Shown here: positions 13,119 to 15,655 of the stretch, piece after piece | Layout: every line of letters begins with the position of its first letter | Numbering within the stretch: the first letter of the stretch is position 1 | Virus record (IMG/VR): IMGVR_UViG_3300032167_007852 | Span: 108,250 to 128,249 of that record | Length of the DNA: 20,000 nt | Reading direction: 5' to 3' (one strand) | Source of the DNA: an uncultured virus (IMG/VR IMGVR_UViG_3300032167_007852) | Taxonomy: Duplodnaviria; Heunggongvirae; Uroviricota; Caudoviricetes | Translations under genes and position numbers: made by a program | The notes under the pieces: model-generated | Told to the model about the DNA's origin: nothing | Database searches by the model: none | The model's input: the letters and a program-made list of their open reading frames with translations, nothing else

Positions 13119-13607
13119 TTATCTTACTAATACTGTTGGTAATCCTTGGTTTTCTCTTTCATATTGATATGAAGAATGTAATGCATCTACATCTAAATTA
13201 ACAAATACGTTATTCATATTATACTTAGCATGAATATTAAATACTTCATCCATAAAGTTTCTCATATAAGTTAATTCTTCTATGACTGTTCTATTAAATA
13301 CATTTGTTAAGGTTAATAGATTATCTAATTCCTCTTGAATATATTTAATACCTTTTGTTTCTTCTTGACATCCTTCTCTAACCATTTTTATTTCCCCTAA
13401 TGTTAAGAATGTATTAGTTCCTTGAATATTATATACTTCATAATCTTCATAGAAACTACTATTCCTATCGGATACTGAATAAGGTTTATATGTTATATCA
13501 TCAGTTGTGATACTATATAATTGATTAATATAACTATCACACATCGACATTGTTCCCCAACATATAACCTGATTGAATTTGTCTAAACATATAACATAAT
13601 TATTCAT
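13119..13607 (-). CDS. Hypothetical protein, 162 aa
   Basis: RBS GGGAGG before the ATG at 13607; follows an early-type promoter. Confidence 0.8.
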   Translation of the reverse strand: MNNYVICLDKFNQVICWGTMSMCDSYINQLYSITTDDITYKPYSVSDRNSSFYEDYEVYNIQGTNTFLTLGEIKMVREGCQEETKGIKYIQEELDNLLTLTNVFNRTVIEELTYMRNFMDEVFNIHAKYNMNNVFVNLDVDALHSSYQYERENQGLPTVLVR

Positions 13608-13635
13608 ATTAAATCCTCCCTTAATAATATTTTGT

Positions 13636-13677
13636 ATCACTTTTATAATATATAACTGAAATTTTATAATTTACAGT
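13636..13677 (-). promoter_or_regulatory. Putative early promoter, copy 2
   Basis: Minus strand ACTGTAA-attataaa-ATTTC-agtta-TATATTATA-aaa-GTGAT. Confidence 0.75.
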
Positions 13678-13678
13678 T

Positions 13679-13931
13679 AAAAAAATTATTTCCTCTAAAG
13701 GAAATAATTATGTTTATTGCTTGCGTTAGCGAGAAAATTTGTTCATGTAAATGAACGTATCTTCCTAACCATATTTCTATTTGTAACAACTTCTTTCACT
13801 CACCTTTTTATAAGGTTCGTTTCGTATCTTAATTTCGCTTTCGCTTCATTAAGAAGTTGTTGGTATGTTGATAAATAATTATACGGTTTCGCTGAAATGT
13901 AATTTGCTACAACAATATATACTATTTTGTT
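13679..13931. other. ORF-free multi-hairpin structured element (candidate ssDNA origin/priming signal or ncRNA)
   Basis: Hairpins at 13684-13709, 13720-13733 and 13741-13756. A long-range stem 13785-13795/13851-13861 encloses two tandem-GA hairpins, one with GCGAAAGC (minus strand, 13837-13844). Confidence 0.65.
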
Positions 13932-13942
13932 AAGGAACATAT

Positions 13943-13972
13943 AAAATGTGTATAGCCCTTAGGCTATACACA
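13943..13972 (-). terminator. Intrinsic terminator
   Basis: TGTGTATAGCC-ctta-GGCTATACACA, 11-bp stem with T4 on the minus strand, just after the stop of 13978..14436. Confidence 0.85.
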
Positions 13973-13977
13973 GAATA

Positions 13978-14436
13978 TTATTTTCTAACTTTTCCATCAC
14001 CTATTAATAAATTAGCTTTATTAACTGCTTTACCAACAGCTTTAGATTTAGTATTTTTAGATTTTTTCATAGCTTGTTTTGCTAATTGTTTAGCTTGAGC
14101 AGAATATCTTTTTTCTAATTTTTTCTCTATGAATCTTTCTAATTTCCATAAAGTTAAAAGTTTTTTGAAATCTCTATCATTTTTTTCTTTAGCTACTTGG
14201 AATATAGCCATTTTGTAAGCTTTATTTTTCTTAGCTTCTTTATCTAAACGAACTATACTTCTTTCTACTAATATATCTTCATTTATAGCTTTTCCTAAAT
14301 CGTAAGTATTTTCAGTTAAAGATTCTATTTCTTCACTAGAGAATGTATCTAATATAGCACATTCTACTATTAAAGCATTAATTTCAGTTTCATTACTAAA
14401 TTCATTTATTATTAATCCGTTATCATCGAATATCAT
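13978..14436 (-). CDS. Probable virion head protein (acidic N-terminus, very basic C-terminus)
   Basis: Charge switch around ILVE|RSIVRLDK suggests a cleaved propeptide. Lies in an operon under a late-type promoter. The function is inference. Confidence 0.55.
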   Translation of the reverse strand: MIFDDNGLIINEFSNETEINALIVECAILDTFSSEEIESLTENTYDLGKAINEDILVERSIVRLDKEAKKNKAYKMAIFQVAKEKNDRDFKKLLTLWKLERFIEKKLEKRYSAQAKQLAKQAMKKSKNTKSKAVGKAVNKANLLIGDGKVRK

Positions 14437-14459: not shown

Positions 14460-15449
14460 TTAATTCATTGTTACACCATATGCACTACAAAAATCTTTTT
14501 TAGCTTGTTCGTATACTGTAAAGAAAGCATTGTAAGCTTTAAATACATTTGAAGTCATTGCACTTATGAATGAACTTACCATAGTTATTAATTGTTCTAC
14601 TTGTGAAATATTACTTTGGTCTATTTCTGCTCCTCCATTACGTGCACCTTCAAGTTGACTTTTTAATTGTTCTAATTGTTTAATGGTATGGCTTTGGGCA
14701 TCGTTAAGATATTTAGAAAGACCTTTACCACCACTTCCTCCATCTCCACCTTTATCCATATCTGCAGATAGATAAGATTCTACTACATTCATTGGTATAT
14801 CTTTTACCTTTACAGGTTGTGCTTCTTTAGGTTCTCCAACCTCTAAAGCTATTCTATCAGCCATAGATGCTTCTGGTACAGCTTTGTATGATCCTTTTCC
14901 TTTAAAGCAAGCACGTTTAACAGCTTTTAAAAGCTGTTTGTTTTCATTTTTATATTTATCTGCAAAAAATGATGATAGGTGGTTTCCTACAACACCATTA
15001 ACGGCATTTATGAATGTATCAGTTACTCCTTCTTTAACTTTGAATTCTGCGAATTTTATCATGTTAACAGTACGTAAAGATCCAGCGAATATATCTCTCA
15101 TTGTTACATTCTTTTTACCTTTATGGATATTTGTATCATAAACGTCACTTGATTTACCTTGAGCACCGCCTTCTCCGATGGCATCATTTATATCATCTAA
15201 AGGAACACTGGATTTTCTACCAAGTAAGAAATCAATCATTTTTTTAACAAGTTCTCTTATCTTAGCAATTACGGTTTTGATAAATTCAACCACTTTATTA
15301 ATCGCATTTTTCACATTTTCACCTAGAGCTTCTTGCATGTAATATTCGTTATTAGCTAATTGACTTATGGTATAGTCTAAATCATATTTAGCCATATTAA
15401 CATCCACCATAGCTTTTTGCTCAGCGATTATATCGTATATATTTCTCAT
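14460..15449 (-). CDS. Probable internal head protein of jumbo-phage type
   Basis: YYMQE|ALGENVKNAINKVVEFIKTVIAKIRELVKKMIDFL: Glu followed by an amphipathic helix, as in processed phiKZ-like head proteins. RBS AAGGAG; late-type promoter upstream. Confidence 0.55.
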   Translation of the reverse strand: MRNIYDIIAEQKAMVDVNMAKYDLDYTISQLANNEYYMQEALGENVKNAINKVVEFIKTVIAKIRELVKKMIDFLLGRKSSVPLDDINDAIGEGGAQGKSSDVYDTNIHKGKKNVTMRDIFAGSLRTVNMIKFAEFKVKEGVTDTFINAVNGVVGNHLSSFFADKYKNENKQLLKAVKRACFKGKGSYKAVPEASMADRIALEVGEPKEAQPVKVKDIPMNVVESYLSADMDKGGDGGSGGKGLSKYLNDAQSHTIKQLEQLKSQLEGARNGGAEIDQSNISQVEQLITMVSSFISAMTSNVFKAYNAFFTVYEQAKKDFCSAYGVTMN

Positions 15450-15482
15450 CCATTACTCTCCTTTCTTTAAGTAATTACAGTA

Positions 15483-15496
15483 ATTATAAGATTGTT
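15483..15496 (-). promoter_or_regulatory. Putative late promoter (AACAATCTTATAAT)
   Basis: Third copy of AACAATC-N2-ATAA, upstream of the head-protein pair. Confidence 0.65.
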
Positions 15497-15500
15497 CTTT

Positions 15501-15543
15501 AGTGTAAAAAGGTAATATTTCGATGCTATATTATATAAGTGAA
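15501..15543 (+). promoter_or_regulatory. Putative early promoter, copy 3
   Basis: AGTGTAA-aaaggtaat-ATTTC-gatgc-TATATTATA-taa-GTGAA. Confidence 0.75.
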
Positions 15544-15655
15544 TAATCAATCAAATAACAATGATGTAACCAACTTAGAATAAGGATTGATTAAATTCTA
15601 TATGATCCTTAACAAAAAATTAATAAAAAATAAAAAAATTAAGGGGGTACACCAT

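Follow-up and report, generated by a model that had tools for sequence, protein, structure and literature searches.

A conserved multicopy structured element, putatively a small non-coding RNA gene, in an uncultured AR9/PBS1-like jumbo phage

Introduction

The intergenic element described here was compared with its closest described counterparts, namely the orphan structured non-coding RNA (ncRNA) motifs of the Rfam kind, the small RNAs (sRNAs) derived from 3′ untranslated regions (3′-UTRs), 6S RNA, the put RNA of HK022, the kink-turn, and the ssi signals, DNA mini-hairpins and hairpin promoters of N4. It was found on the minus strand of a 20,000-nt stretch of viral DNA (IMG/VR record IMGVR_UViG_3300032167_007852, positions 108,250 to 128,249), the whole of which is called the window and forms the final 20 kb of a 128-kb virus record with an estimated completeness of 58%. 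The conserved unit occupies 13919-13741 and is about 180 nt long, and the explanation preferred here, which is held with confidence and doubt in about equal measure, would be an insulated small structured ncRNA gene. Giant phages have hardly been explored for non-coding RNAs.

The orphan motifs of the Rfam kind are, like the element, intergenic, conserved and composed of several helices; they share with it the compensatory changes, the loops of GNRA type and a 3′ hairpin that resembles a terminator, whereas the element was found to match none of them. With the 4227 models of Rfam 15 at the gathering threshold, 0 matches were found for the whole window or for 10 other copy loci, and at E≤10 the best match within 13600-14000 was Prevotella-2, with 23.3 bits against a threshold of 72.1 bits, on a copy-specific terminator. 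A scan of the window for tRNA and tmRNA found none. No description of such an element was found in literature searches, and a term search of a 2026 preprint on prokaryotic non-coding sequence space returned neither 'phage' nor 'jumbo'. Within the reach of these searches the element family is uncatalogued, an orphan phage structured element.

Some bacterial 3′-UTR-derived sRNAs share their terminator with the upstream mRNA. The unit was found to be similar in lying just behind a gene, in ending at a terminator-like hairpin and in having either a promoter-like motif of its own or a possible origin by processing of the upstream mRNA, but it was much more structured and more conserved in sequence than base-pairing sRNAs typically are and present in multiple copies per phage genome, and no seed or target was identified. 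It approached 6S RNA in length (about 180-190 nt) and in the coincidence of its most conserved blocks with promoter-like words, whereas the long rod with its central bubble was absent, the closing helices were weak and no Rfam 6S match was found at E≤10. The put RNA of HK022 is a processive-antitermination RNA, and the element was likewise found in several copies per genome, upstream of terminators and co-oriented with the downstream genes. Unlike at put, each terminator is followed immediately by an early or late promoter of the downstream gene, so that read-through would not be needed, and no sequence or structure match to put was found.

Mini-hairpins of the d(GCGAAAGC) and d(GCGAAGC) types are stable in DNA. 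The words GCGAAAGC or GCGAAGC were found in several copies of the P2a hairpin of the element, together with tandem G.A pairs and conserved hairpin shapes, as in ssi signals, DNA mini-hairpins and N4 hairpin promoters, whereas many P2a loops contained GCGAUAGC or GCAAAGC, or a stem of AAUGC/GCAUU, so the mini-hairpin motif is not conserved as such, and the motifs were confined to one strand. A resemblance to the kink-turn was seen in an invariant C:G pair followed by G.A and A.G beside a helix in 23/23 copies, whereas the loop was found to be a symmetric 2x2 loop with no 3-nt bulge, which makes it a plain tandem-GA motif and no canonical kink-turn, and no L7Ae-family protein was found in 5 phage records.

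AR9/PBS1-like phages contain uracil-DNA and two unusual multisubunit RNA polymerases, and the late polymerase of AR9 recognises a template strand that contains uracil. In PMC5312081, the consensus of the AR9 early promoter is given as AAATATATATTAT-(6N)-G(+1) and that of the late promoter, which belongs to the non-virion RNA polymerase, as AACA-(6N)-TA/G, in which transcription starts at the last base. Motifs that match both AR9 consensus sequences were found in the phage analysed here.

Conserved fold and covariation

Twenty-three distinct copies of the element were found across IMG/VR and metagenome contigs, and the conserved fold that they support is a Y shape formed by P2, P2a and P2b, followed by the presence of a 3′ hairpin, P3 (Table 1). 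Counted in a structure-guided alignment fitted to the model, standard pairs were found in 96.6% of 552 pair cells, as against 35-51% when the partners were slid by 1-3 columns. Compensatory changes, which the sequence-only reading of the window had suggested seeking among homologous regions, were found in 12 of the 25 pairs; the compensatory cells numbered 54 against 14.8 +/- 3.8 in shuffles, and 0/500 shuffles reached 54. RNAalifold and single-sequence folds served as model-independent checks: the former independently yielded P2, the inner pairs of P2a, P2b with its flanking pairs, and P3, and the Y shape was obtained by single-sequence folding in 18/23 copies.

P2 was found to contain 11 bp of near-invariant sequence, with 98.8% of the cells paired and a covarying pair that was C:G in 14 copies, A:U in 8 and C.A in 1 (n=23). 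The arms that had been proposed for this stem, AACAACTTCTT (13785-13795) and AAGAAGTTGTT (13851-13861), were present, as were the two minus-strand arms that the stem had been said to enclose, AC-GA-ACCTT-ATAAA-AAGGT-GA-GT and CTTAAT-GAA-GC-GAAA-GC-GAA-ATTAAG. P2a is a tetraloop hairpin; its loops contained GAAA, GAGA, GAUA or AAA, and the P2a stems were AAU..GC/GC..AUU, AAUGC/GCAUU, AAGC/GCUU or AAAC/GUUU. P2b was found to contain about nine distinct complementary stems, with compensatory changes in 4/6 pairs, and to sit on an invariant CGA...GAG platform (C:G plus tandem G.A/A.G) in 23/23 copies, with a covarying A:U/G:C pair outside it. The P3 stems included GUUCAU/AUGAAC, GUCCAU/AUGGAC, GUUCACCU/AGGUGAAC and GCUCAA/UUGAGU; each of the 6 pairs showed compensatory changes somewhere in the family, and a hairpin of at least 5 bp was found in 20/23 copies. 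P3 was weak in the window copy (6 bp, AAATTTTC, then a second hairpin with T7) and strong in copies L159 and L143 (11-13 bp with a T-tract).

The conservation was found to start at TTGTT (13915-13911), which was kept in 22/23 copies, and to stop just past P3 (13741), whatever the flanks. In the linker between P2 and P3, GGUUAGGAAGAUAC was conserved in sequence, and the GGTTAGGAAGATAC block was identical in copies A, B and C and replaced elsewhere by GGAAAGGAAG or AAGGAAAG; helix tests and an all-against-all column scan established no structure there.

Several further pairings were considered. An outer helix AACCGTAT/ATATGGTT (model R1) was rejected, with 80% of the cells paired, one pair failing in 11/17, no clear covariation, and a GGTT to GGAA change uncompensated in three copies. 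A pairing of the 5′ TATTGTT with GGAAGATA showed no covariation and was rejected as well. The candidate UUUC/GAAG pairing of 4 bp in the 5′ domain had 2 compensatory changes; spurious helices were equally good, and it failed in subfamily 2. An extension of P3 by the U-tract was plausible in some copies and inconsistent across the family.

Folding against shuffles on both strands with RNA and DNA parameters, another check suggested by the sequence-only reading, showed only a moderate gain over the shuffles. As RNA, the 253 nt of 13679-13931 had z -4.27 on the minus and -3.66 on the plus strand, and the 186-nt core had z -2.78 on the minus strand; as DNA, the values for the core were weak (z -1.79 minus, -2.01 plus). 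The element is nevertheless taken to be more than chance because 23 homologous copies with compensatory changes were found, which is decisive over single-sequence folding.

The window has about 28% GC and is strongly depleted in CpG (observed/expected 0.44). The CpG richness that had been remarked on in 13679-13931 was borne out, with 9 CpG per 253 nt and an observed/expected ratio of 1.82; only 0.4% of 253-nt windows reach 9. The CpGs of the element were observed at conserved positions (ACGA, GCGA, TACG) despite the CpG-depleted genome.

Copies and distribution of the element family

The copies were collected by conserved-word pattern scans of IMG/VR, one metagenome scan and the covariance models R1 and R2, and 77/80 listed 14-mer loci, 17/31 loci of a 17-base pattern and 1/9 metagenome loci were discarded as false positives. 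Among 27 loci of a gapped P2 pattern, L169 and L189 were apparently coding sequence and were not counted as copies. The sole pattern locus in GTDB genomes, from a Planctomycetota metagenome-assembled genome, was not matched by the covariance model, and the species-representative bacterial genomes, as far as this pattern reaches, yielded no copy. With model R2 no copy was detected in AR9, BpSp, MarsHill, LPJP1 or phiR1-37 (best E 0.26), and nothing similar to 13400-14200 was found by blastn among 50,697 phage records.

A second copy was found in the genome of the window (G000:29548-29730), intergenic and 73% identical over 183 nt. The number of copies was 2 in G000, 2 in G005 (97% complete), 3 in G004, and 4 each in G009 and G010 (about 80% complete); the contigs carrying 2-4 copies are about 200 kb. 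Family 1 was found to contain 18 copies and the divergent subfamily 2 contained 5 copies, all from G009/G010. By homology of the flanking genes, the copies occupy four or five conserved gene positions: position I lies 5′ of a 67-aa ORF and a 124-aa DNA-binding protein, position II lies 5′ of a 312-aa virion protein, mostly in a divergent region, position III, that of the window copy, lies between virion-protein genes and a 161-173-aa early gene, position IV lies 5′ of a polymerase beta′ gene, and position V was found in G009 and G010 (L172, L175), with flanking genes unlike those of the other four positions. The divergent intergenic regions hold 5/8 copies of G000, G005 and G009 (copy B, both copies of G005 and two of the four of G009), and one further copy was found 0.7 kb from a strand switch, at the minimum of the cumulative GC skew.

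The four copies of G009 and the one distinct copy of G010 formed a clade (support 100/100) that excludes the family-1 copies occupying the same positions. This clustering by lineage and not by gene position indicates that the copies evolve in concert within a lineage, by gene conversion or by co-evolution with a shared partner. As a related observation, copies at the same position in different lineages were less alike than copies at different positions inside one lineage (L171-L175 and L186 against the rest). The multicopy presence at conserved positions, the concerted evolution, the fold, the invariant helix, the G.A platform and the retained CpGs mark the element as functional.

Strand and layout of the putative transcription unit

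Only the minus strand was found to carry the GNRA-type loops and the platform of tandem G.A pairs, the other strand giving C/U mismatches and UUUC loops, and the Y-shaped region was more stable on the minus strand in 20/23 copies with RNA parameters and in 22/23 with DNA parameters. The motif AACA-N6-TA was found directly 5′ of the unit in 3/4 class III copies (window, L160 and L151). An extended -10 TGATATAAT was found upstream of the divergent-region copies B and L186, L120 contained a plain TATAAT, and in subfamily 2 the motif TATA(A/T)T was located exactly 5 nt before TTGTT in all five copies. P3 carried a T-rich tail in 12/23 copies, and in copy B it was followed by U6 and then by a second hairpin with a T-tract. 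In L159 and L143, P3, with its long stem and T-tract, is the only terminator in sight, and the unit must belong to the transcript of the upstream ORF.

The sequence-only reading had offered two explanations, a replication origin or a priming signal formed by folding of both strands and a minus-strand ncRNA of about 240 nt running from the AACA-N6-TA match at 13920-13931 to the hairpin and U-tract at 13709-13679. Both the match and the hairpin with its U-tract are present. The minus-strand ncRNA is the better supported of the two, because the unit starts one base past the predicted start, the motifs are formed on the minus strand only, this strand folds more stably and a terminator-like hairpin closes the unit. 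The proposed length did not hold, since the unit comprises about 180 nt (13919-13741), and the further terminator formed by the hairpin at 13709-13679 was seen in the window copy and in its near-identical relative L160 only.

From this layout and from the comparison of copies we infer the RNA nature, the start, the end and the function of the element as follows. In the window copy, transcription would start at A13920 from the AR9-type late promoter AACA-N6-TA, and the RNA would pass through the AT-rich 5′ domain, fold into the Y-shaped domain P2/P2a/P2b and end at P3 with its U-rich tail, backed up here by the second terminator at 13709-13679; the terminators would thus isolate the RNA from the next gene and its early promoter. 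The 5′ domain may be the 5′ part of the RNA or a promoter. The invariant helix and the G.A platform, the concerted evolution and the promoter-unit-terminator layout suggest that the P2 sequence and the platform could dock a phage or host protein, that the RNA might act in trans within a ribonucleoprotein, and that the 2-4 copies per genome would evolve in concert because of the common partner. In some genomes the unit may be made as the 3′ end of an upstream late mRNA, without a promoter of its own. If the element is an RNA, it would add a new family to the catalogue and open a way to study how genes are regulated in this uncultured gut-phage clade; whatever its nature, a covariance model is ready for annotating AR9-like gut phage genomes.

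A number of observations weigh against an RNA gene. The motif AACA-N6-TR was as frequent in the window as chance predicts (48 matches, with 48.0 +/- 6.8 expected), and most copies were without a recognisable upstream promoter; a sigma-70 scan of 13500-14100 gave 4 matches against 4.2 +/- 1.9 expected, none of them on the minus strand upstream of the unit. The T-rich tail of P3 (at least 5 T in 8 nt) was found in just 12/23 copies, and 2 copies were without P3. No structure was established for the 58-nt 5′ domain by column scan and alignments, and it is possibly promoter DNA. The 552 cells contained 5 G.U against 3 C.A, which gives no RNA-specific or strand-specific signal, so that DNA hairpins fit too, and single-sequence folding beats shuffles only moderately. 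No partner protein was found, and neither a member of the L7Ae family nor a reverse transcriptase was found in the 5 phage records searched. Variants of the unit were found in four RNA-labelled runs, with one contig containing exactly 13741-13918 between flanks unlike the window; these RNA-library data are contigs, from which transcription, strand, starts and ends cannot be read.

Alternative explanations

The element may instead be a cis-acting RNA module at the boundaries of transcription units, carried as a structured 3′-UTR by the upstream mRNAs, most of them late and encoding virion proteins, with a role as terminator or insulator for the multisubunit RNA polymerases, in stabilising or processing of the mRNA, or as a put-like modifier of the polymerase; this is considered doubtful. 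The unit was found directly behind the hairpin of the upstream gene in 12/17 first-found copies. The stop codon of the upstream ORF in L159 and L143 is only 4-24 nt away from the unit, no hairpin intervenes, and P3 is the only terminator there, which places the unit of these two copies in the upstream transcript. An AR9-type early motif was found downstream of 9/23 copies, within about 5-40 nt, so that the unit separates late from early units, and a paralogue of the internal-head-protein gene was the upstream gene in six copies. A weak indication comes from an RNA-library contig that joins 243 nt, unlike the upstream sequence of the window, to the unit, with the same limit that contigs cannot show transcripts. 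Against such a module, the five divergent-region copies listed above have no co-oriented upstream gene and would need a promoter of their own, and in the window a good terminator is already present between the upstream gene and the unit. A plain terminator would, moreover, need no invariant 11-bp helix, no G.A platform and no conserved 5′ domain of 58 nt, and the concerted evolution points to a shared partner in trans or to recombination.

An element acting as DNA, either an origin or priming site (hairpins of single-stranded DNA, a cruciform or a primer-transcript origin) or a site for a DNA-binding protein on the inverted repeat, is judged unlikely. Structured transcripts prime synthesis at ColE1 RNA II and at the T4 ori R-loops. 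The arms of P2 form a near-invariant 11-bp inverted repeat in 23/23 copies, a constancy not usually seen in RNA helices whose role is structural only, the pairs were almost exclusively Watson-Crick, mini-hairpins of the d(GCGAAAGC) and d(GCGAAGC) types were found in P2a, and the 5′ half was very AT-rich. The 2-4 copies at conserved genome positions, with both G005 copies and 2/4 G009 copies in divergent regions and one more copy near a strand switch at the skew minimum, would also suit an origin, which would then locate the replication origins of this phage group. The evidence of strand speaks on the other side: only one strand gives a meaningful G.A platform and GNRA-like loops, with C/T mismatches on the other, and the minus-strand fold was more stable in nearly all copies, so that a symmetric cruciform is unlikely. 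The two plus-strand hairpins on which folding of both strands had been based, CTTGC-GTTA-GCGAG (13720-13733) and GTTCAT-GTAA-ATGAAC (13741-13756), were both found; the first lies outside the unit and only in the window copy and a near-identical relative, and the argument from both strands fails because it is not conserved, and the second has palindromic arms (GTTCAT/ATGAAC) and carries no strand information. The GC skew, which had been proposed as a check for an origin, followed the gene orientation, with extremes not exactly at the copies. The fold of the core as single-stranded DNA was weak (z -1.79 and -2.01), and P3, which resembles a terminator, points together with the promoter-like motifs to a transcribed element.

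Within the preferred explanation of a minus-strand RNA gene, a role of the RNA as decoy or regulator of the phage's own multisubunit RNA polymerases, 6S-like for a viral enzyme, was considered and appears very unlikely. One arm of P2 was found to contain AACA-N6-TA and the other UGUU, the corresponding word of the template strand, the 5′ end contained an invariant UUGUU, and the 5′ domain resembled the layout of an early promoter (ATTTCA ... AT-rich ... TTAT-N6). Such a decoy could mimic a uracil-containing template strand, because the promoter words would be present in uracil form and the AR9 late polymerase recognises such a template; it would time the switch from early to late transcription or titrate the polymerase.

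There is a negligible probability that the element is a small protein gene, for which the minus strand offers an ORF of 46 aa (13800-13940) and the plus strand one of 53 aa (13717-13878), or the remnant of a decayed gene, for although both ORFs are open in the window copy, neither had a Pfam or PHROG match, no reading frame was conserved across the family (the longest stop-free stretch was 24-29 aa in L186, L173, L124, L170 and L172), the indels were of 1, 2 and 4 nt and not multiples of three, and the substitutions in the helices were compensatory.

Phage lineage and promoter motifs

The recurrent downstream gene was found to encode a subunit of a phage multisubunit RNA polymerase (phrog_3015, E 1.6e-49), whose best cultured relatives, at about 30% identity, were those of the Bacillus phages BpSp, PBS1 and AR9 and of Yersinia phage phiR1-37. 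The matching AR9 gene, g154, is the C-terminal part of the non-virion polymerase beta′ and has an annotated early promoter as well. Because of the early motif and of the relatives of this polymerase subunit, the source of the window is, as judged from its genes and promoters, an uncultured, distant AR9/PBS1-like jumbo phage. DNA nearly identical to the window was present in metagenome runs from faeces and bovine gut, and a search for related loci with the polymerase subunit found only the 5 contigs already known. The contigs G000, G004 and G005 are labelled 'provirus' in IMG/VR, and their gene content and promoters were observed to resemble those of AR9-type jumbo phages.

The early-promoter block of the clade was observed to be strongly conserved as TGTAAAAAGGT-N5-TTTCAATTATATATTAT-N6-G, with a core that fits the AR9 virion-polymerase consensus, in a comparison of the sites at 13638-13661 (minus strand) of the window and downstream of L163, L159, L167, L138, L143, L151, L165 and L173. 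In several genes with the early block, the ribosome-binding site was observed to be preceded, at about 20-25 nt, by a late-promoter word of the AACAAT type, and some genes appear to carry both promoter types, as in AR9.

Features of the locus and neighbouring genes

The element was found in the largest gene-free gap of the window, which the sequence-only reading had named as the largest ORF-free one; the gap between likely genes spans 13611-13977 (367 nt, with the likely ATG at 13610 assumed as the start of the downstream gene), as against 137 nt for the runner-up. The genes flanking the gap are encoded on the minus strand. The two boundaries named in that reading were also found: the terminator hairpin of the upstream virion-protein gene at 13947-13972 is the upstream boundary of the element, and the early promoter at 13638-13661, with the sole exact TATATATTAT-N6-G match of the window at 13654-13638 (minus strand), bounds the element on the other side and lies outside the element itself. 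The features are listed in Table 1.

Table 1. Features of the element and its surroundings in the window, in order along the minus strand
Feature	Position	Strand	Basis or remark
phiKZ_IP-like internal head protein gene	14460-15449	-	protein family search
Virion structural protein gene, upstream of the element	13978-14436	-	protein family search
Intrinsic terminator hairpin of the upstream virion-protein gene	13947-13972	-	11-pair stem, 5 G-C, then TTTTATATGT; a hairpin also precedes most other copies
AACAAAATAGTA, AR9-type late promoter match AACA-N6-TA	13920-13931	-	predicted start A13920, one base before the unit
5′ AT-rich domain, 58 nt, sequence-conserved	13862-13919	-	TTGTT 13915-13911, ACATTTCA 13900-13893, TATAATTATTTATCAAC 13883-13867
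P2 5′ arm AACAACTTCTT, doubling as AACA-N6-TA word	13851-13861	-	alignment of 23 copies
P2a hairpin AAT-GAA-GC-GAAA-GC-GAA-ATT, GNRA-type loop	13831-13850	-	stem variants, compensatory G:C to A:U
P2b hairpin A-C-[G.A/A.G]-ACCTT-ATAAA-AAGGT-[G.A/A.G]-G-T	13798-13820	-	tandem sheared-GA platform
P2 3′ arm AAGAAGTTGTT	13785-13795	-	alignment of 23 copies
Linker with purine-rich block GGTTAGGAAGATAC (13770-13757)	13757-13784	-	alignments
P3 hairpin GTTCAT-TTAC-ATGAAC, then AAATTTTCTC (13740-13731)	13741-13756	-	terminator-like 3′ end of the unit
Second AT-rich hairpin, then TTTTTTT, putative back-up terminator	13679-13709	-	only window copy and near-identical L160; not flagged by the terminator scan (<3 G-C pairs)
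AR9-type early (virion RNA polymerase) promoter of the downstream gene	13638-13661	-	TTTCAGTTATATATTAT-N6-G, predicted start G13638
Gene for a protein without assigned function, 163-173 aa, downstream of the element	13119-13610/13640	-	
Amidase gene	near gap	-	
Thymidylate kinase gene	near gap	-	

The listed GTG start of the downstream ORF at 13640 was observed to overlap the predicted start G13638 of the early promoter, and the downstream product is likelier to be of 163 aa, judged from the ATG at 13610 with its GGGAGG ribosome-binding site. The phiKZ_IP-like genes were observed to precede the element in classes III and IV (14460-15449 on the minus strand of the window, L143:482-1432, and the upstream ORFs of L159, L165, L167 and L160). 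The gene for a ClpP-like prohead protease diverges at 15587, and the divergent intergenic region 15450-15586 between the internal head protein and prohead protease genes was observed to be a local turning point of the GC skew, with AACA-N6-TA words on both strands (15485-15496 on the minus and 15557-15568 on the plus strand). The class I copies (L023:1560-1700, L128, L164 and L124) were followed by the presence of a conserved stretch of about 100 nt before the 67-aa ORF, which was found to contain AACAATTAAGTA (a late-promoter word), CATCTCC and a strong hairpin with a T-tract.

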